From the IMG/VR virus record IMGVR_UViG_2740892115_000003: a stretch of DNA of 27,180 nt; one strand, 5' to 3'. The notes beneath the pieces were generated by a model, which was given only the letters and a program-made list of their open reading frames with translations, was not told the DNA's origin and did not search any database. The translations under genes and the position numbers were made by a program. Numbering within the stretch: the first letter of the stretch is position 1; every line of letters starts with the position of its first letter. This document shows positions 8,827-27,180 of this stretch, one piece after another. The DNA comes from a virus. Its lineage: Duplodnaviria > Heunggongvirae > Uroviricota > Caudoviricetes.

Positions 8827-9786
8827 ATGAAAATTTGTATCGATGACGGCTCCACCAACATCAAGCTGGCATGGACTGAGAACGGCGAACGCCGCAACGC
8901 CATCAGCCCGAACAGCTTCAAGTCGGAATGGTCTGCGCCGTTCGGTGGCACGCAGCCCGCGAACTACATGCTTGATGGCGTGCGCTATGGTTTTGATCCG
9001 GTCAGCGATCGCTTTGTCCAGACGACTGACACGCAATACCAGTACAGCGATGTGAATGTCATTGCCATTCATCACGCGTTGGTCAAATCAGGCATCACGC
9101 CACAGGAGGTGGATGTGGTTGTCACCCTGCCACTGAGCGAGTATTTCGACACAAACGCACAGCCGGACATAGCCAACATCAACCGCAAAAAAGCGAACGT
9201 TATGCGCCCGGTGGAGTACCAGAACGGCGAAGCATTCACTATCCGTAACGTACGGGTTATGCCTGAATCCATTCCGGCTGGCTTTAAGGCACTGGCTGAC
9301 ATGAGTCCGTTTGAATCCCTGCTGATTGTGGATTTAGGCGGAACCACGCTGGATGTGGCAAAGGTTCAGGGACAACTGGCAGGTATCAGCCAGGTGTTTT
9401 GCGATCCACACGTAGGCGTTTCCCTGATGGCCGATGCCGTACTGTCGGTGATGGCCACTAACGGTATGCGTACCAGTCACCACATCGCCAATACCATTAT
9501 CGAACATCGCCATGATGAAGCCTGGCTGCGCCAGCACATCCACAATGACGCGCATTACGCCAGCCTGATGGCGGTTATTCGTGAAAAGGAAGAAACACTG
9601 AAACAACGCGTGATCCGCGCGCTGGCGGGTTTTTCGGGTTACGGGCGGGTGATGGTTGTCGGTGGAGGGGCGGAGATTGTGGCACCCGCTATCCGCGAAG
9701 CCTGCGGAGTTAATGCGACTTTCATCGCGGACGGGGTGCCACAGTTTGCTCTGGTTAATGGGCTGTACGCAATGGACAAGGAGTAA
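8827..9786 (+). CDS. parM: Actin-like segregation ATPase, ParM/StbA family
   Basis: 319 aa; N-terminal MKICIDDGSTNIKL and LIVDLGGTTLDV phosphate-binding motifs, ESIPAG, MVVGGGAE, and C-terminal LVNGLYA follow plasmid R1 ParM along the whole length (from memory); AAGGAAAAG RBS. Confidence 0.85.
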   Translation: MKICIDDGSTNIKLAWTENGERRNAISPNSFKSEWSAPFGGTQPANYMLDGVRYGFDPVSDRFVQTTDTQYQYSDVNVIAIHHALVKSGITPQEVDVVVTLPLSEYFDTNAQPDIANINRKKANVMRPVEYQNGEAFTIRNVRVMPESIPAGFKALADMSPFESLLIVDLGGTTLDVAKVQGQLAGISQVFCDPHVGVSLMADAVLSVMATNGMRTSHHIANTIIEHRHDEAWLRQHIHNDAHYASLMAVIREKEETLKQRVIRALAGFSGYGRVMVVGGGAEIVAPAIREACGVNATFIADGVPQFALVNGLYAMDKE

Positions 9787-9790
9787 ACCA

Positions 9791-10102
9791 ATGACGACAC
9801 CAACCAGACGGATAAGTTTCTATCTGAAGCCTGCGGCCGTCAAGAACGAAAGCGAAGCATGCGCCTGGCTGGACAGCCTTACACCAGAAGCCCGCAAAAG
9901 CGGCCAACGCGTGGCTTTTCTGGCCGGGCTGGCACTACTGAAAATGAATCCGGCAGAGGCTTACCGACTGGCTGCATGGGCTGATGATGAGGCATTATCA
10001 GTGACACAAACCAGGACAGAACGCCCCGCGTCACAGCCAGTATCAGCCGCACAGATAACCAGTCAGATGGCCGGAAATATCCGGGCGTTATTTCCCGAAT
10101 AA
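9791..10102 (+). CDS. parR: ParR-like DNA-binding adaptor (ribbon-helix-helix N-terminus)
   Basis: ATG at 9791 with AAGGAG SD, 4 nt after the parM stop; N-terminal RRISFYLKPA...LDSLTPEARKSGQRVAFLAGLALL parallels R1 ParR. The ORF-track start at 9656 lies inside parM and is rejected. Confidence 0.65.
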   Translation: MTTPTRRISFYLKPAAVKNESEACAWLDSLTPEARKSGQRVAFLAGLALLKMNPAEAYRLAAWADDEALSVTQTRTERPASQPVSAAQITSQMAGNIRALFPE

Positions 10103-10165: not shown

Positions 10166-10501
10166 ATGCAACACATTGACAGAGAAAAAGCGCAGCGACT
10201 GATTGAGCGGATGGAAGCGCTGGCGAAAGAAGAAAATGTCAACATCCAAAAAATAGCTGAATGTGGCCAGATAGTTCTTCGTCGTGAAAAAGACCTCAAA
10301 CAACTGATGTCTGGCGAAACCAGCAAAACATGGACTTCAGGCGAGAAGACGGTTTATTGCAGTTTCTGCAATAAATCCCAGTACGAAGTCACAAAGGTGA
10401 TTGCCGGACCGTCTGTTTACATCTGCAATGAGTGCGTGGATTTGTGCAATGAAATTATCAGGAAAGAAGTGACAGACCATGAAGAAAAAACGCATGAATG
10501 A
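10166..10501 (+). CDS. Small protein with C-terminal ClpX-type C4 zinc-binding domain (ClpX N-domain-like)
   Basis: 111 aa; AAGGGGG RBS; residues [39 protein letters not shown] nearly duplicate the E. coli ClpX N-terminus ([39 protein letters not shown], from memory), all four Cys retained; about 65 aa of helical N-terminus precede it. Confidence 0.8.
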
Positions 10502-10667: not shown

Positions 10668-11075
10668 TTAAATATAATCTTCTTCGTAGTCGCTGATTAA
10701 TTCATTGCCATAATCAGACAGCAATTTCAAAGCAAAGGTAACTTCCTCAAGGGTAGCTATCCCCATTGCTGAAAACACCGTTAATTTAACCAGCAGCAGG
10801 GAGTTTGAAAGTTCGGAAGAGTTCATCATTAAAAATATTGATGCAGCCTGAAAAGCTGTGCGTTTATTCCCATCATGAAAGGCATGAGCCTTGGCTATAC
10901 CAATCAAATACATAGCAGCCAGAGCATGAATATCATCAACCCCTTCATAGTAGTGTAGTGTCCTGACGCGATTTAAAGCACCTTCAAGTAGCCCGTCATT
11001 GGCATTTCCGCTCTGGGGTAAAGTTTCAGCATGGATACGTTCTACTTGTTCTTTTGACAAAAACACTATGTCCAT
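10668..11075 (-). CDS. doc: Doc-family toxin (Fic fold)
   Basis: 135 aa; motif HAFHDGNKRTA fits the Fic/Doc signature Hx(F)x(D/N)(G/A)NKR; start ATG overlaps the upstream antitoxin stop (ATGA). Confidence 0.85.
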   Translation of the reverse strand: MDIVFLSKEQVERIHAETLPQSGNANDGLLEGALNRVRTLHYYEGVDDIHALAAMYLIGIAKAHAFHDGNKRTAFQAASIFLMMNSSELSNSLLLVKLTVFSAMGIATLEEVTFALKLLSDYGNELISDYEEDYI

Positions 11076-11431
11076 CAGTTATCCTCAAGCTTTTTAATGA
11101 TATCCGCATGTTTTTCTCTTGTACGCTTCATTGCATCTTCAAAAGACAATCCTTTTTTTCTCTGTGCGACAAGAGCTGGATGACGTTTTTCCAGATCTCT
11201 CACTGCATTTATTAAGAGTGGTTGCTTCATTTTGTTTATTTGATCCCGCAGTTTTTTGGTTTTGCCAAGGACAGCCCGTATTTCAGGACTAAGATCAGAA
11301 CCAGCAAGAACAACATCCTTCCCTCCCTGCGCAGTGATAACGACACTGCCACCGGAAGAAAGGTAATCCAGAATTTCACTCAGGTTCTCACGAAATTCAT
11401 CATCAGTTACAGTTTTCATATTCATTTCCAT
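11075..11431 (-). CDS. phd: Phd/YefM-type antitoxin
   Basis: Directly upstream of and overlapping doc; N-terminal KTVTDDEFRENLSEILDYLSSGGSVVIT is Phd/YefM-like. Three in-frame ATGs (11431, 11425, 11419); exact start uncertain. Confidence 0.7.
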   Translation of the reverse strand: MEMNMKTVTDDEFRENLSEILDYLSSGGSVVITAQGGKDVVLAGSDLSPEIRAVLGKTKKLRDQINKMKQPLLINAVRDLEKRHPALVAQRKKGLSFEDAMKRTREKHADIIKKLEDN

Positions 11432-15767: not shown

Positions 15768-16820
15768 ATGAATCTGGTGATGTCAGATAATGCCCGTAAC
15801 AAGCTGGGCCGCTACATGACGCGACAGGCATCGATTAACAATATCCCGGTTTCTGGACTGGTATCGCGATTTACCGTGGAACCCTCGGTGCAGCAGCGTT
15901 TTGAAAACGCCTCAAAGGAAAGTACCGAATTTACGAAAAGAATTAACGTGATCGGCGTGACCGACCAGAAAGGCGAAAAAATCCTCCTGGACACCACCGG
16001 GCCAATTGCGCGCACGAATAGCAGTTATGACGGCATCAAACGCCGTAACCCGAATAACGTGATCGATATGAAGTCTCGTCAGTACCAGTGCGAACAGGTG
16101 AACTACGATACCTTTATTTCGTACCCACAGCTTGATACCTGGGCGGCCCACAGCGATTTTCAGTCCCGTATCAGTACACAGATCACCCGGCAGGTAGCGC
16201 TTGATCGCATCATGATTGGCTTTAACGGCACATCCCACGCCTACGAGTCTGATTTTCACACCAACAAGCTGCTTCAGGACGTTAACGTGGGCTGGCTGGA
16301 GCACATCAGAACCGATGCCAGCGAGCGCGTAATGAATGACGTGACGCTGACCTCCCGCAACATGGACAACACTGTGGCGCACGCGGGTAAATACGCGAAC
16401 CCTGATGCACTGGTACAGGATGCGCGCTCATCCCTGCTGGATGAATGGCACAAGGAAGCAGACGACCTCGTGGTGATTATGGGACGCAACCTGTTTAACT
16501 CGCTGCGTCTGCCCGTACTGAACAGCATCAGCGGCCAGAATCCCAATGCGGAATTACTTGCCGGGCAGCTCATCCTGTCATCGCGCACCATTGGCGGGCT
16601 GGGCGTGTTCCTTGCGCCGTTCTTCCCGGATGCAACGATGCTGATCACCTCGTTCAACAACCTGTCGATTTACTGGCAGAAAGGTTCAATGCGTCGCCTG
16701 ATGAAAGACGAGCCGGAATACAACCGCATCGCCACCTACCAGTCCATCAATGACGCTTATGTCGTTGAAGACTATGGCAAGTGCGCGATGATCACTGGCC
16801 TGAAGTTCGCCGACAGCTAA
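15768..16820 (+). CDS. N: Major capsid protein, P2 N-like
   Basis: 350 aa; AAAGGAG RBS; FTVEPSVQQ, GEKILLDTTG, MIGFNG, VGWL, NLSIYWQ, YVVEDY parallel P2 N. Confidence 0.9.
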   Translation: MNLVMSDNARNKLGRYMTRQASINNIPVSGLVSRFTVEPSVQQRFENASKESTEFTKRINVIGVTDQKGEKILLDTTGPIARTNSSYDGIKRRNPNNVIDMKSRQYQCEQVNYDTFISYPQLDTWAAHSDFQSRISTQITRQVALDRIMIGFNGTSHAYESDFHTNKLLQDVNVGWLEHIRTDASERVMNDVTLTSRNMDNTVAHAGKYANPDALVQDARSSLLDEWHKEADDLVVIMGRNLFNSLRLPVLNSISGQNPNAELLAGQLILSSRTIGGLGVFLAPFFPDATMLITSFNNLSIYWQKGSMRRLMKDEPEYNRIATYQSINDAYVVEDYGKCAMITGLKFADS

Positions 16821-19179: not shown

Positions 19180-19583
19180 AGCTCTGGCCCACGCTTGGCG
19201 TCGCTTTCCTTCTGATTGCCGCATGGGGAACATCCATGCGTCTGTCGTGGTCGCTGGGCCGGGAGAACGCCAGAAACGAAGCGCAGGCCAGCACCCTGAA
19301 AAGTACCGTCGACACACTGAATATCATCAGCGCCGGGGTACAGGATATGCAGCAGGTGCTGGCTCAGCTCCGCGCGGAAAATCAGCAACGCAATCAGGAC
19401 GGAGAGGTAAGACGTGAACAGCTACGCAACGATATTGCAAAAGATGAATGCGCCCACGCTTTGCCTGACGCTCGTTTTACTGACAGGTTGCGCAGGCACG
19501 CAGAACGCGCCAGGGCCAGCGCCGTCAGTCCGGCTTATACCGCAGACGCTGACCATGCCGGTAACGCCCCCCCCCTTCCCTGA
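19176..19583 (+). CDS. i-spanin (Rz/LysB-like)
   Basis: ATG at 19176 overlapping the endolysin stop; N-terminal TM helix WPTLGVAFLLIAAWG followed by coiled-coil-like sequence; the o-spanin gene is embedded in its 3' end. Confidence 0.7.
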   Translation: MKLWPTLGVAFLLIAAWGTSMRLSWSLGRENARNEAQASTLKSTVDTLNIISAGVQDMQQVLAQLRAENQQRNQDGEVRREQLRNDIAKDECAHALPDARFTDRLRRHAERARASAVSPAYTADADHAGNAPPLP

Positions 19584-19725
19584 CCCACCCACATGGGGAA
19601 ACCTCGGAATATGGGGCGACCGCCTTCTGGATGCACTGGAAACCTGTAACGCGGATAAACGGGCCATTGCTGAACTGGATAAGAGAATAGCCGAACTGAC
19701 ACACCAGACGGGAGTAACACAATGA
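19414..19725 (+). CDS. o-spanin (Rz1/LysC-like outer-membrane lipoprotein)
   Basis: GTG at 19414 with GGAGAGG RBS; signal peptide ending in lipobox LLTGC; Pro-rich; overlaps the i-spanin in another frame. Confidence 0.65.
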   Translation: MNSYATILQKMNAPTLCLTLVLLTGCAGTQNAPGPAPSVRLIPQTLTMPVTPPPFPDPPTWGNLGIWGDRLLDALETCNADKRAIAELDKRIAELTHQTGVTQ

Positions 19726-21602
19726 CCAGTAAGAACTTTGCACTGATTACAGCCATGACACAGGCTGAACTGACTCAAAAGGTGAATGAACATCTTGCGA
19801 AAGGGTGGCATCTTCAGGGGGAGACGCGGGTTGCCTACGAACCCGGCACCCCGTGGTATCTAATGCAGGCAATGGTGGCCGATGGCACTACAGACATCTC
19901 ACCTGATTCCCCCCAGCACGGCAGCGTGCCGGAGTGGTATTACGTGGTGGTACTTGCTGGTCAATCCAATGCCATGTCATATGGTGATGGAATGCCGCTG
20001 CCGGATTCTTACGATGCGCCCCACCCACGCATTAAGCAACTGGCCCGTCGCAACACAGTGACTCCCGGTGGTAAAGCATGCGCATTTAACGACATCATTC
20101 CGGCAGACCACTGCCTGCATGATGTTCAGGATATGAGCGCACTGAATCATCCGAAGGCAGACCTGAGCAAAGGGCAGTACGGCTGTGTCGGCCAGGGCTT
20201 ACATATTGCCAAAAAACTGCTTCCGTATATCCCGAATAACGCGGGGATCCTGCTGGTACCATGCTGTCGTGGTGGTTCGGCATTCACCCAGGGCGCGGAG
20301 GGGACATTCAGTGCGGACACGGGGGCCAGCCAGGATTCGGCGCGCTGGGGTGCGGGTAAGCCGTTATATCAGGACCTGATCGCACGCACCAAAGCGGCAT
20401 TACAGAAGAACCCGAAAAATGTGTTGCTGGCGGTGTGCTGGATGCAGGGCGAATTTGACATGAGCGCTGCCACCTACGCACAGCAACCGGACCTGTTCAC
20501 GGCCATGCTGAAGCAGTTCCGTACTGACCTTTCCGGATTTAACGCGCAGTGCCATGGCGGCAGTGCTGCAGTTGTACCGTGGATTTGTGGCGACACGACG
20601 TATTACTGGAAAAACACATACGGCACACAGTATGACTCCGTCTACGGCGCGTACAAAAACAGGGAGAGCGACAACGTTTTCTTTGTGCCGTTCATGACCG
20701 ACGGTAACGGCAACAACACGCCCACCAACTTACCGGCAGAAGACCCGGATATTGCTGATGCAGGTTATTACGGCGCGCAATCCCGTAGTAATGGTAATTG
20801 GGTATCGTCAAATCGTCCGACACATTTCAGTTCATGGGCGCGCAGGGGCATTATTTCGGATCGCCTGGCAACCGCTATTCTGAACGCAGTTGGTCGAACC
20901 AGCGCCTTCATCAGCGGTACCGCACCGGAGATTAAACCCTCGCCCGGCGGCGACACGCCATCGGGGCCGTCTGATGGTGACACATCCGTTCGTACAGTCT
21001 CCCTGCTGCCGACAGCCGGAGAGGCTGCTGCGCAGGGCTGGACCATCACCGGCGGCAGTGTTGCGCTGGAAGATGGTGTGTTTAAGGTTACCAAGCAGAG
21101 CAATAAAACCTGGTCCCTGATGCATCCGGTGGATGACGCAGTCTCCCTGCTGACACGGGGTGGCAGACTGAGCTGTAAGTTTCGACTGTCAGGCGCACTG
21201 ACCAACAACCAGTTCGGTCTGGGAATTTATCTGTATACCGATGTAGCGTTACCTGACGTCGTGGCGATGACCGGGACTGGTAACCCGTTCCTGATGTCGT
21301 TCTTCACCCAGACCACAGACGGCAAACTGAATCTGATGCATCACAAGAAAGCCGGAAACACAAAGTTGGGCGAGTTCGGGAATTACAGTAACGACTGGCA
21401 GACGCTGGAGCTGGTGTTCACCGCCGGCAGTGCCACGGTTACTCCGAAACTGAATGGAGTGGCTGGCCCGGCATTCCAGGTCATAAAAGACAGTCTGACA
21501 CTGGGGCTGAATGCGCTGACGTTAACTGATATCACTAAAAATGCCGCGTACGGCGTCGATATCGGTAGCCTGGTGCTGGAAATCAATAATCCCGCAGCAT
21601 AA
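19722..21602 (+). CDS. Prophage NanS-p-like sialate O-acetylesterase (SGNH/SASA domain plus C-terminal beta-rich domain)
   Basis: 626 aa; N-terminal domain MTSKNFALITAMTQAELTQKVNEHLAKGWHL; esterase motif VVVLAGQSNAMSYGDG (catalytic Ser in GQSN); architecture and length match the NanS-p esterases of E. coli Stx prophages. Confidence 0.75.
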   Translation: MTSKNFALITAMTQAELTQKVNEHLAKGWHLQGETRVAYEPGTPWYLMQAMVADGTTDISPDSPQHGSVPEWYYVVVLAGQSNAMSYGDGMPLPDSYDAPHPRIKQLARRNTVTPGGKACAFNDIIPADHCLHDVQDMSALNHPKADLSKGQYGCVGQGLHIAKKLLPYIPNNAGILLVPCCRGGSAFTQGAEGTFSADTGASQDSARWGAGKPLYQDLIARTKAALQKNPKNVLLAVCWMQGEFDMSAATYAQQPDLFTAMLKQFRTDLSGFNAQCHGGSAAVVPWICGDTTYYWKNTYGTQYDSVYGAYKNRESDNVFFVPFMTDGNGNNTPTNLPAEDPDIADAGYYGAQSRSNGNWVSSNRPTHFSSWARRGIISDRLATAILNAVGRTSAFISGTAPEIKPSPGGDTPSGPSDGDTSVRTVSLLPTAGEAAAQGWTITGGSVALEDGVFKVTKQSNKTWSLMHPVDDAVSLLTRGGRLSCKFRLSGALTNNQFGLGIYLYTDVALPDVVAMTGTGNPFLMSFFTQTTDGKLNLMHHKKAGNTKLGEFGNYSNDWQTLELVFTAGSATVTPKLNGVAGPAFQVIKDSLTLGLNALTLTDITKNAAYGVDIGSLVLEINNPAA

Positions 21603-21625
21603 GGAAGAGCAGGAGAGCAAAACAG

Positions 21626-22093
21626 ATGCTTAAGACAAACAGTCTGCGAGAGTCCATGCTTCATGGGTGTCGGTGGTGCCAGGCTAATCCCGAGAAATTC
21701 ACCATTTTCGTGGAGAGCGGCAACATTGAAACGACCGGAGAAGCGCCCTCGTTTGTTTACCGCTATCAGATGGTGATGTTTGTCATGGATTACGCCGGAG
21801 AGCTGGACGACCTCACGCTGCCGCTGCTGGCGTGGTTATCCGAAAATCAGCCACAGTTGTTGCTCAATCCGGAGCGTAATCAGGACATCAAATTTTCTGC
21901 CGTTATCAATGACGATGACAGCGCCGATCTCCTGTTTACGCTCCCCCTGCGGGAACGCGTTCGCATCACGCGCAACAGTCAGGGCACACCGCAGGCAGAA
22001 CACCTGCCGGAGCCAAAACCCCGTCTGCCTTCTTCCGAAGGCGACTGGTCGCATGTATTCCAGGATGTGACGTGGGGTGAAAGCGATGGATAA
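21626..22093 (+). CDS. R: Tail completion protein, P2 R-like
   Basis: 155 aa; MLKTNSLRESML..., LPLLAWLSENQP parallel P2 R (MLKPDSLRRAL..., VPVLAWLRENQP). Confidence 0.8.
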   Translation: MLKTNSLRESMLHGCRWCQANPEKFTIFVESGNIETTGEAPSFVYRYQMVMFVMDYAGELDDLTLPLLAWLSENQPQLLLNPERNQDIKFSAVINDDDSADLLFTLPLRERVRITRNSQGTPQAEHLPEPKPRLPSSEGDWSHVFQDVTWGESDG

Positions 22094-24546: not shown

Positions 24547-25147
24547 TTCGTTGTTACCACCATCAGCCAGCAATTTCATGCGTTGTGCCGAAGCCGTCGG
24601 AACACGCATTACAGACATTCCGGTAGACCTCAACACGCTGTGGTCGCCGGACACCTGCCCGGTGCATCTGCTGCCTTATCTCGCCTGGGCGTTTTCCGTT
24701 GACCGCTGGGATCGCAACTGGCCGGAAGAGACAAAGCGACAGGTGATTCGTGATGCATGGCTGATACACCGACACAAAGGGACCATCAGCGCACTGCGAA
24801 GAGCCGTGGAGCCTCTCGGCTACCTGATTGAAGTAAAGGAGTGGTGGCAACTCAACGAGGAGCCGGGAACATTTCGCATTGTTGTCGGAGTACTTGATCA
24901 GGGCATCACCGATGAAATGTATCAGGAACTTGAGCGCCTTATTGCGGATGCAAAACCAGTAAGTCGCCATCTGACGGGGCTGGCGATCAGCCTGAGTGTG
25001 AACGGAAAGATTTTCGTTGGTACGGGATGCTATCACGGCGATGCCCTGACGGTTTATCCCTACACCCCGGAGTCCATTATTGTCGAAGGGGATTATTTCC
25101 CTGCCCCGGCCATTCATTTAATTGATAATCTGAGAGTAAACGCATGA
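24539..25147 (+). CDS. I: Tail protein, P2 I-like
   Basis: ATG at 24539 overlapping the J 3' end (ORF-track 24506 is upstream in frame); 202 aa. Confidence 0.8.
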   Translation: MSNSLLPPSASNFMRCAEAVGTRITDIPVDLNTLWSPDTCPVHLLPYLAWAFSVDRWDRNWPEETKRQVIRDAWLIHRHKGTISALRRAVEPLGYLIEVKEWWQLNEEPGTFRIVVGVLDQGITDEMYQELERLIADAKPVSRHLTGLAISLSVNGKIFVGTGCYHGDALTVYPYTPESIIVEGDYFPAPAIHLIDNLRVNA

Positions 25148-26874
25148 CAGTGAAATACTACGCCATTCTGACTAATCAGGGCGCGGCACGACTGGCTAAC
25201 GCGACGATGCTCGGCAGTAAGCTGAATCTGACGCGAATGGCCGTTGGTGATGCAAATGGTGTGTTACCAACACCAGACCCTGCACAAACAAAACTGATTA
25301 ACCAGAAACGCATTGCACCGCTGAATCTTCTGAGTGTTGACCCTAACAATCAGAGCCAGATTATTGCGGAGCAAATCATCCCTGAAAGCGAGGGAGGATT
25401 CTGGATCCGTGAGATTGGTCTTTATGATGATAAAGGTGTACTCATTGCGGTGGCAAACTGCCCGGAAACGTACAAACCGCAGTTGCAGGAAGGCAGTGGA
25501 CGCACCCAGACTATCCGCATGATTCTGGTTGTCACGAACACCGAAGCCATCACGCTGAAAATCGACCCGTCTGTGGTTCTGGCAACCCGCAAATATGTGG
25601 ATGATAAAATATCAGAGCACGAGCAGTCACGACGTCACCCGGACGCCTCGCTGACCGCAAAAGGCTTTGTTCAACTTAGCAGCGCCACCAACAGCACCTC
25701 TGAAACGCTGGCCGCAACACCGAAAGCGGTTAAGGCTGCATATGACCTGGCTAACGGGAAATATACCGCTCAGGATGCGACTACGGCACGAAAAGGCCTT
25801 GTTCAACTCAGTAGCGCCACAAACAGCACGTCTGAAACGCTGGCCGCAACACCGAAAGCGGTTAAGGCTGCATATGACCTGGCTAACGGGAAATATACCG
25901 CTCAGGATGCGACTGCGGCACGAAAAGGCCTTGTTCAACTCAGTAGCGCCACAAACAGCACGTCTGAAACGCTGGCAGCGACACCAAAAGCTGTTAAGGC
26001 GGTAATGGATGAAACGAACAAGAAAGCGCCCTTAAATAGTCCTGCACTGACCGGAACGCCAACAACACCAACTGCGCGACAGGGAACGAATAATACCCAA
26101 ATCGCAAGCACGGCTTTCGTTATGGCTGCGATTGCCGCCCTTGTAGATTCGTCACCTGATGCACTGAACACGCTGAACGAGCTGGCTGCGGCGCTGGGCA
26201 ACGACCCGAATTTTGCGACCACCATAACTAACGCGCTTGCGGGTAAGCAACCGAAGGATGCCACCCTGACGGCGCTGGCGGAGCTTGCTACATCAGCAGA
26301 TAAACTCCCATATTTTAAAGGGGCAGATCGTGCCGCGTTAACTGCACTGACAAGTGTTGGACGCGCCATTCTTGGTAAGACCAGTATTCAGAGCGTTCTT
26401 GATTACCTTGGTTTGGGGGAAGGCTCTGCATTGCCTGTTGGTGTACCGGTTCCATGGCCCACCGCCACACCGCCAGCAGGCTGGTTACAGTGCAACGGAG
26501 CTACGTTCACCAAAGAACAATATCCTGTTCTGGCCAGAGTCTACCCGACCCTCCGTCTTCCCGATTTACGCGGTGAGTTTATCCGTGGATGGGACGGTGG
26601 TCGCAAGGTTGATACCGGGCGTGCGCTACTTTCATTTCAGGAAGGGACTATCGTATCCGGTTTTGATGATAATGATACCGGAGATATCAGTTCGCTCGGC
26701 TCTACACAATACGGATTTGGTGACGCTTTAACCTCTAATCAACTGGGGGTCATAAATGGCAAAAAGTGGATATTTGATGCATCCTCTAAAGGTGCACGAA
26801 GACATGACTGGTGGGCTTATGTATCAGCTCGCCCCCGCAATATCGCATTTAACTATATCGTGAGGGCGGCGTGA
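25144..26874 (+). CDS. H: Tail fibre protein, P2 H-like, with internal tandem repeats and a variable receptor-binding C-terminus
   Basis: 576 aa; conserved H-type N-terminus (MTVKYYAILTNQGAARLANA...); C-terminal PWP...GWL.CNG..F....YP.L...YP.LRLPDLRGEFIRGWDGGR is the common tail-fibre distal-domain pattern. Confidence 0.85.
   Translation: MTVKYYAILTNQGAARLANATMLGSKLNLTRMAVGDANGVLPTPDPAQTKLINQKRIAPLNLLSVDPNNQSQIIAEQIIPESEGGFWIREIGLYDDKGVLIAVANCPETYKPQLQEGSGRTQTIRMILVVTNTEAITLKIDPSVVLATRKYVDDKISEHEQSRRHPDASLTAKGFVQLSSATNSTSETLAATPKAVKAAYDLANGKYTAQDATTARKGLVQLSSATNSTSETLAATPKAVKAAYDLANGKYTAQDATAARKGLVQLSSATNSTSETLAATPKAVKAVMDETNKKAPLNSPALTGTPTTPTARQGTNNTQIASTAFVMAAIAALVDSSPDALNTLNELAAALGNDPNFATTITNALAGKQPKDATLTALAELATSADKLPYFKGADRAALTALTSVGRAILGKTSIQSVLDYLGLGEGSALPVGVPVPWPTATPPAGWLQCNGATFTKEQYPVLARVYPTLRLPDLRGEFIRGWDGGRKVDTGRALLSFQEGTIVSGFDDNDTGDISSLGSTQYGFGDALTSNQLGVINGKKWIFDASSKGARRHDWWAYVSARPRNIAFNYIVRAA
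25659..26000 (+). repeat. Tandem 132-bp repeats (about 2.6 copies) inside the tail fibre gene
   Basis: Near-identical units encoding KGFVQLSSATNSTSETLAATPKAVKAAYDLANGKYTAQDATTAR start near 25659 and 25792, with a partial third from about 25923. Confidence 0.8.
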
Positions 26875-26880
26875 TACCGT

Positions 26881-27180
26881 TCAGCCGGCAAGCGCCAGTG
26901 GCGCTTCCGGCCAGCTGATTTCAGGTGCCTTGCTGATATCCAGTGCGTTCAGCTCGTCGATATAATCCAGCACGGCGTTCAGTTTTGCCGTTTCTTCTGG
27001 TTTCAGACTGCGACCTGCCCGCAGTTTGAGGTTGATGAGGTCGATGGACTTCATCGCCTGATCCACCCGTTTCTGGCGTTGCTGTCTGGCAACCTCCAGT
27101 TCTGCGGCTCGCTGCCGTTCAGTATCGGTTACCCACGCCTCACCGTTCCAGGTATCCCATGGCGTGGCTGGCTGTTTTGT
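26881..27180 (-). CDS. Tail fibre assembly (chaperone) protein, Tfa/P2 G-like, C-terminal part; 5' end beyond the window
   Basis: Minus-strand frame open from 27180 to stop at 26881; C-terminus ...DISKAPEISWPEAPLALAG matches the conserved Tfa C-terminal pattern (P2 G ends ...DPANPEWPEMPQ, from memory). Confidence 0.6.
   Translation of the reverse strand, partial: TKQPATPWDTWNGEAWVTDTERQRAAELEVARQQRQKRVDQAMKSIDLINLKLRAGRSLKPEETAKLNAVLDYIDELNALDISKAPEISWPEAPLALAG

Follow-up and report, generated by a model that had tools for sequence, protein, structure and literature searches.

A predicted NanS-p sialate O-acetylesterase in the late operon of a P88-like prophage, with an enzyme module shared with lambdoid prophages

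An esterase gene in the late operon

The IMG/VR virus record IMGVR_UViG_2740892115_000003 (27,180 nucleotides; this whole stretch is called the window below) is a P2-family prophage that runs from an integrase to a tail fibre and encodes the replication protein gpA, ParM/StbB, a portal protein, a terminase, gpO, gpN, gpM, gpR, gpS, gpV and tail proteins. Between its lysis and tail genes we identified a gene of the nanS-p type. Judged from its sequence, the product is quite likely to be a functional NanS-p-family sialate 9-O-acetylesterase, and the gene a resident, optional member of the P2-family late (head-lysis-tail) operon. The gene and its parts are as follows.

19722..21602, + strand: nanS-p-type sialate O-acetylesterase gene, a single intact open reading frame of 626 aa plus stop, with Pfam, PHROG and PDB matches
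19722..19883, + strand: DUF1737 N-terminal domain (aa 1-54), a P2-family-specific variant with the conserved loop EPG[T/V]PWYLMQAM
19884..19925, + strand: Ser/Pro-containing linker (aa 55-68), ...DGTTDISPDSPQHGS, without DNA homology to lambdoid alleles in the alignments
19926..20885, + strand: SGNH type II / SASA esterase core (aa 69-388), matched by 3PT5 (E=3e-123) and 98% identical in amino acids to the lambdoid element L017
19965..19967, + strand: codon of the catalytic nucleophile Ser82 in the motif G80-Q81-S82-N83, from the 3PT5 alignment, position checked by script
20823..20825, + strand: codon of the catalytic base His368 in the motif T-H-F-S, aligning with NanS His301 (chain index 312 of 3PT5)
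20886..21011, + strand: second Pro/Ser-rich linker (aa 389-430), corresponding in the alignment to the reported autoproteolysis region of gp84, a NanS-p of phage phi24B
21012..21599, + strand: C-terminal lectin-like jelly-roll domain (aa 431-626, DUF6645), matched by 6YP6 (E=4e-30), 99% identical to L017 and 37% to phi24B
19928..21600, + strand: payload module of esterase and C-domain (1,673 bp), with 98.0% DNA identity to lambdoid prophage alleles (blastn)

In the list of open reading frames, the gene starts with an ATG at 19722 and stops at 21600-21602 on the + strand. Pfam recognizes DUF1737 (aa 4-53, E=3e-7), SASA (aa 75-271, E=5e-13) and DUF6645 (aa 477-587, E=2e-19) in the protein, and each match exceeds the curated cut-off of its own family. 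The DUF1737 match (PF08410) scores 30.5 bits against a cut-off of 24, and when aa 1-68 are searched alone the score is 34 bits (E=2.7e-8). PHROG family phrog_143 covers the protein end to end (1079 bits). Searches of the sequence against the PDB matched the E. coli NanS structure 3PT5 to aa 69-388 and 6YP6, a crystallised NanS-p C-terminal domain, to aa 431-623, and these strong matches to solved structures fix the folds of two of the three domains. A chance open reading frame is impossible given its length and the E-values of the domain matches. The boundaries of the gene and its three-domain NanS-p architecture, both described in an earlier note made from the letters of the sequence, are right on all of these grounds.

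The SGNH type II esterase NanS of E. coli relies on Ser19 and His301, lacks a catalytic Asp and has Gln18 contributing to the oxyanion hole (PMC9063846). In an HMMER alignment to 3PT5, Gln81-Ser82 (GQSN) and His368 (THFS) of the window protein align with NanS Gln18, Ser19 and His301, and the catalytic residues of both motifs do not vary across an alignment of four sequences, of which three are reference NanS-p proteins. The GQSN motif that had been proposed as catalytic thus lies at aa 80-83, with Ser82 opposite NanS Ser19. The earlier note had also held that a failure of Ser, His and Asp to align with SASA esterases would count against the assignment. Ser82 and His368 do align, and because NanS itself works without a catalytic Asp, the alignment holds in the form proper to this subfamily, in whose site the Asp has no part.

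The chromosomal NanS (YjhS, 3PT5) and the window protein are homologous over aa 69-388 of the latter and have in common a Ser-His dyad without Asp, an oxyanion Gln and the SGNH type II fold. The NanS structure aligns with the esterase core only; neither the DUF1737 nor the lectin-like domain of the window protein is covered by it. Chromosomal NanS belongs to the host sialoregulon and not to a phage late operon. By sequence, the window protein qualifies for the NanS-p family on every count: it has DUF1737, a SASA/SGNH type II core with Ser and His, and a lectin-like C-domain, and it is encoded in a prophage late region beside lysis genes. The feature it does not have is a placement downstream of Q/stx in a lambdoid phage, which is typical of the family without being required, since alleles from non-Stx prophages also count as NanS-p.

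A review reports Neu5,9Ac2 esterase activity for every NanS-p allele tested from EDL933 (seven to ten enzymes) and for five from O104:H4 C227-11 phi-cu, and states that growth on this substrate requires these enzymes (PMC8065619). A single residue, A211V, separates the P88-like allele of O104:H4 (WP_000202135.1, O3K_RS11555) from the window protein. Five places in the O104:H4 strain are homologous to the esterase core; this is compatible with the P88-like allele being among the five that were assayed, and proves nothing.

The prophage is P88-like (Xuanwuvirus, Peduoviridae). It shares flanks of 96-97% DNA identity, and the gene order from integrase to tail fibre, with phage P88 and the Xuanwuviruses 500465-2, 520873, 503458, Chuche and P884B11; unlike the window, these phages have no esterase. 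The late operon, described earlier as P2-type, is therefore that of the P2 family, in a P88-like phage and not in P2 itself. Pfam and PHROG place gpX, a holin, an M15 endolysin, a LysB-like protein and LysC upstream of the esterase and gpR, gpS and gpV downstream. With LysC on one side and the tail-completion protein gpR on the other, the gene does stand between the lysis cassette and the tail genes, as had been noted.

19414..19725, + strand: reading frame of lysC (Rz1-like o-spanin), Pfam LysC E=1.6e-13
21626..22093, + strand: gpR tail completion gene, Pfam P2_Phage_GpR E=1.4e-38, with its own AGGAG ribosome-binding site
19670..21667, + strand: block missing in phage P88, 1,998 bp here versus 93 bp in P88 (blastn against the P88 locus L001)

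The block missing in P88 reaches 18 codons into the end of lysC and 14 codons into the start of gpR. By offset mapping, the PGAP start of the O104:H4 lysC homologue would correspond to about position 19465 of the window. P88 and most of its deposited relatives lack the esterase gene, and the three deposited P88-like records that carry it (vB_EcoM-705R2, vB_EcoM-569R5 and PV468777) each cut it at the record end. Of 5,426 closed E. coli genomes, 373 have the lysC-esterase-gpR arrangement, O104:H4 2011 outbreak strains among them, and 689 have the empty P88-type junction. The 373 carriers come from diverse human, environmental and other sources. In O104:H4 the gene (O3K_RS11555, WP_000202135.1) is annotated merely as a 'DUF6645 domain-containing protein', and the exact window protein is already in NCBI under the same uninformative name. 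The gene is thus neither rare nor new as a sequence; in the searchable literature we found no discussion of NanS-p in a P2-family context.

The earlier note had called the gene a moron, but it lacks the classical promoter-gene-terminator organization. Its ATG overlaps the lysC stop codon (ATGA) with GGAG about 10 nt upstream, and only 23 nt, containing AGGAG, separate its own stop codon from gpR. Promoter- and terminator-like sites between 18200 and 22800 are no more frequent than in shuffled sequence; from lysC to gpR we found no + strand terminator and a single weak promoter-like site where chance predicts 2.6. The GC content of the gene (0.55-0.57) equals that of its flanks. The esterase is thus translationally coupled to lysC, without detectable transcription signals of its own, and we regard it as an in-frame passenger of the late operon and not as a self-contained moron. 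This operon arrangement points to late, induction-dependent expression. Inspection of the N-terminus revealed no signal peptide, so release of the enzyme should depend on the upstream lysis genes.

A payload shared with lambdoid prophages and an N-domain of the P2 family

The homology of the esterase gene to lambdoid alleles at the DNA level is confined to one part of it. It begins at position 19928, with the first residues of the esterase core, and stops at the stop codon. Across this module the identity is 86.5% to a Stx1a phage and 98.0% to a lambdoid group such as L017, and the module is the only homology between L017-type lambdoid genomes and the window. L017 is a typical lambdoid element, with antiterminator Q, nanS-p, holin, lysozyme, Rz, terminase and an HK97-type protease-capsid fusion. 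The two proteins share 98% identity in the core, 99% in the C-domain and 32% in the N-domain. The earlier note had likened the gene to lambdoid Stx-prophage NanS-p and suggested transfer of this cargo between unrelated phage lineages. Sharing with lambdoid prophages holds for the esterase and C-domain, from 19928 to the stop codon, and not for the DUF1737 domain and both junctions, which are specific to the P2 family.

The sequences thus speak for two parts of the gene with separate histories: a payload that is exchanged with lambdoid prophages, and a DUF1737 N-domain that stays with the P2-family backbone. P88-type loci keep one N-domain (94-100% identity over aa 1-54) and yet hold payloads that are 88-99% identical to that of the window and fall into about four identity groups. 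On the simplest reading of these sequences, the enzyme half has been overwritten by lambdoid alleles, or donated to them, more than once. A recent simple insertion of a whole lambdoid gene can be ruled out because the N-domain and both junctions are not lambdoid, and also because a sister P2-family lineage has a gene in the same slot at genome-wide divergence. The modularity of the D, SASA and CTR domains among Stx phages, and nanS-p genes in non-Stx prophages, have already been described (PMC10462455). The enzyme family itself is known; what is new here is the clean split between payload and adaptor, and the slot shared by two P2-family lineages.

Like lambdoid NanS-p proteins, the window protein combines DUF1737, a SASA/SGNH type II core and a lectin-like jelly roll, has the same catalytic residues and is encoded in a late operon beside lysis genes; in some lambdoid alleles, the esterase and C-domain are up to 98-99% identical to its own. 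In contrast to theirs, its DUF1737 domain falls in a separate clade and has a loop that is 4 residues longer. Lambdoid nanS-p genes lie between Q/stx and the holin S, whereas the window gene follows lysC and precedes gpR in a myovirus of the P2 family. Where lambdoid genes depend on antiterminator Q, it would be regulated by a late activator of the Ogr/Delta type.

Two further forms of exchange were considered and set aside. In the IMG/VR contigs L010 and L011, and L066 and L086, a P88-like left half is joined to a lambdoid right half, or the other way round, within the esterase gene, as in reciprocal recombinants. The L010-type junction (at least 80% of it) was found in 0 of the 5,426 closed E. 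coli genomes, and the contigs are most likely assembly chimeras across a repeat of about 1.7 kb, an assessment made from the L010-type junction. Ongoing gene conversion between co-resident copies is unsupported, as the modules are only 85-87% identical in two genomes with both types.

The DUF1737 domain of the window is 30-34% identical to those of the three lambdoid alleles compared, 21% to that of phi24B and 56-65% to those of the sister P2-family lineage. In two unsaturated comparisons its dN/dS is 0.06-0.07, indicating purifying selection. The first 70 aa match only P88-like records among 50,697 phage genomes (tblastn), and HMMER retrieved only 11 proteins at E<=0.001 from 1.84 billion representative proteins. 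A word-index protein search with the N-domain gave near-identical fragments only, and a scan of species-representative genomes found nothing. Some of the distant matches to the DUF1737 query, P0012 (602 aa), P0014 (133 aa) and P0018 (648 aa), hold 2 to 11 tandem DUF1737-like stretches; the domain thus also recurs as a repeat unit in proteins other than esterases. The N-terminus of P0014 is hydrophobic and resembles a signal peptide.

In the sister lineage (contigs L110-L116), the slot between lysC and gpR likewise holds a gene for a protein with DUF1737, esterase and lectin domains. Identity to the window is 62% for the capsid protein, 58% for gpR and 46% for gpS. The N-domains share the loop EPG[T/V]PWYLMQAM with the window, and the junction of ribosome-binding site and start codon, GGAGTAACACAATGA, is nearly identical in L116. 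DNA identity to the window is about 66-69%, continuous over the lysC tail, the N-domain and the core, and equals that of the rest of the genome. The simplest reading of these sequences is that the esterase gene is a long-standing, optional resident of this P2-family branch. The lineage has no megablast match among the 50,697 deposited phage genomes, and its closest named relatives are Xuanwuviruses, to whose capsid proteins its own is no more than about 62% identical; it has the look of a sister group not yet described. Among closed E. coli genomes, 14 contain it, for example NZ_LR134079.1 at 2152048-2155107. In L112 (11972-12372), L115 and L116, the esterase stop codon is followed by a hairpin rich in GC and by about 300-400 nt of spacer before gpR, versus 23 nt in the window, and the gene may be insulated differently in this lineage. 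The related contigs L088 and L089 have a lysozyme-type endolysin in place of the P88-like M15 peptidase.

Possible docking on the capsid and other roles

The NanS-p of phage phi24B, gp84, is a capsid-decorating protein according to proteomics and cryo-EM, and its DUF1737 domains form hexamers in the central pore of the face-centred hexons of a T=9 shell (bioRxiv 10.64898/2026.04.10.717836). It is a major virion protein, present as a full-length form of about 70 kDa in fresh virions, from which the enzyme is later cleaved off at Ser/Pro motifs; an SSP-type site has been proposed in the first linker (bioRxiv 10.64898/2026.04.10.717836). The window protein resembles gp84 in its domain order, in the Ser/Pro-containing linkers at both domain borders and in its predicted expression with virion genes. 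Unlike phi24B, with its Phage_capsid_3-family T=9 podovirus shell, the window phage has a P2-family capsid protein, and the identity between the two N-domains is the low 21% given above. The capsid protein in question is the following.

15768..16820, + strand: P2-family major capsid protein gpN, Pfam Phage_cap_P2 E=3e-116, a candidate docking partner of DUF1737

We compared the type of N-domain with the capsid gene across three capsid families, Phage_cap_P2, the PF05065 protease-capsid fusion and Phage_capsid_3. The window and L112, whose Phage_cap_P2 capsid proteins are 62% identical, both have the P2-family type of N-domain. L017 and the Stx2 phage 1717 have protease-capsid fusions that are 99% identical and N-domains that are 94% identical, with cores at only 71% and C-domains at 37%. 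In phi24B, a Phage_capsid_3 protein goes with an N-domain loop of its own, while the core (96%) and C-domain (99%) are nearly those of phage 1717. N-domain type therefore tracks capsid family in three of three families, and the payload crosses the capsid boundary twice, between the window and L017 (98-99%) and between phage 1717 and phi24B (96-99%).

By analogy with phi24B, DUF1737 may dock the full-length esterase onto the P2-type capsid and so tether it to the virion, a possibility whose chances we place a little short of even. More tentatively, and at somewhat below even odds, DUF1737 could be a docking adaptor specific to the capsid family, with the esterase and lectin domains as an interchangeable payload swapped by unrelated temperate coliphages; the P2-family clade of the domain would then tether the esterase to a T=7 gpN shell. 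On the main reading, of a resident late-operon gene, the esterase would be transcribed only with the late genes, after induction, and would reach its substrate only when the cell is burst by the lysis cassette next to it. Once released, it would remove 9-O-acetyl groups from free and mucin-bound sialic acids, whereby Neu5Ac would become usable by surviving lysogens and mucus glycans would be made accessible. If docked, the enzyme would be carried by fresh virions and later shed at the Ser/Pro linkers, as with phi24B gp84.

Several points weigh against this account. The match between N-domain and capsid could be mere linkage, because the homology between families starts at the core and crossovers can fall only there. 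To our knowledge, the P2-type T=7 shell has no face-centred hexons. It is only to the flat, face-centred hexons of its T=9 shell that phi24B gp84 binds (bioRxiv 10.64898/2026.04.10.717836). Gene-free P88-like phages are viable, so any capsid decoration would be dispensable, and in an indirect comparison their capsid proteins score against a sister-lineage query as those of carriers do. The nearest standalone DUF1737 proteins occur in uninformative or early-gene-like contexts, outside head modules. Matches to the Ogr-type pattern TGT-N12-ACA are at chance level across the window and absent from the intergenic portal/scaffold promoter region, so that late expression is read from gene order. The literature on activity, expression and virion presence concerns other NanS-p alleles, and we found none for this one.

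In the first alternative, to which we give a nearly even chance, the enzyme is a purely soluble public good that never enters the particle. Lysis of an induced minority would unlock 9-O-acetylated sialic acid as a carbon source for the lysogens, and DUF1737 would be an oligomerisation or stability domain. This is the published NanS-p model, in which growth of EDL933 and O104:H4 on Neu5,9Ac2 depends on the nanS-p copies, and it accommodates the dispensability of the gene for P88-like phages, the standalone DUF1737 proteins outside head modules and, as far as we know, a T=7 shell without the type of hexon used in phi24B. It leaves unexplained why the N-domain is under purifying selection, when the chromosomal NanS structure 3PT5 aligns only from aa 69, and why N-domain type tracks the capsid family in three families. 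The place of gp84 as a major virion protein of phi24B is left without an explanation as well.

A virion-borne esterase could also act on the phage receptor, removing O-acetyl groups from sialic-acid-containing bacterial surface polymers and so aiding adsorption or release, much as the esterases of influenza C virus and coronaviruses destroy receptors. The O104 antigen contains O-acetylated sialic acid, and the allele is present in O104:H4; the gene, moreover, lies within a structural operon. De-O-acetylation of surface polysaccharides has been raised as a possible phage-side role (PMC8065619). We nevertheless consider this role improbable. Most strains among the 373 genomes of diverse sources would not be expected to display sialic acid, the enzyme module is 98% identical in lambdoid phages that use other receptors, and the domains suggest no association with tail or baseplate. 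That the gene is a decaying passenger, a non-functional scar of recombination with lambdoid prophages, is scarcely credible: many P88-like phages do lack it and truncated copies exist in databases, but the 626-aa frame is intact and retains its catalytic and oxyanion residues, hundreds of genomes hold near-identical alleles and the dN/dS of the N-domain is 0.06-0.07. A role in defence was also discarded, PADLOC giving no match for the esterase.

Other prophage features and implications of the esterase gene

Other cargo of the prophage includes a gene for a Doc (Fic/DOC) toxin with a Phd/YefM-like antitoxin gene upstream (10671-11431, - strand). They lie in a low-GC island (0.40-0.43) between the partition and portal genes, which we take to be an accessory-gene hotspot of P2 phages. 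This island is not common to the O104:H4 prophage, and Doc gave weak PADLOC matches (PDC-S23). ParM (StbA_N and ParM_N, E=4e-82) and a StbB-like plasmid-stability protein are encoded at 8827-10099 (+ strand), and the annotation of the O104:H4 element lists them as well; integrating P2-family phages do not usually have an actin-type partition system. Also in the cargo region (10166-10498, + strand) is the gene for a 111-aa protein whose sole domain is a ClpX-type C4 zinc finger (E=7e-18). Beyond about position 24982, in the tail-fibre region (gpH, 25144-26874), the window departs from the O104:H4 prophage (L003): only patches of about 86% identity are left at 24983-27180, versus about 96% in the remaining late region. 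This divergence is a typical host-range mosaic.

Pathogenic E. coli probably benefit from NanS-p enzymes in feeding on gut mucus and moving through it, and the number of nanS-p copies matters for growth on acetylated sialic acid. The NanS-p gene pool extends past the lambdoid and Stx phages to a P2-family lineage found in roughly 7% of the closed E. coli genomes, the O104:H4 outbreak clone among them. The clean breakpoint between DUF1737 and the esterase, together with the capsid-linked types of N-domain, turns the observation of a capsid anchor in phi24B into a general hypothesis. If docking on the capsid is true, this would be a contractile-tailed phage with a mucus-active enzyme coat that can be shed, comparable in function to the esterases with which influenza C virus and coronaviruses destroy receptors.

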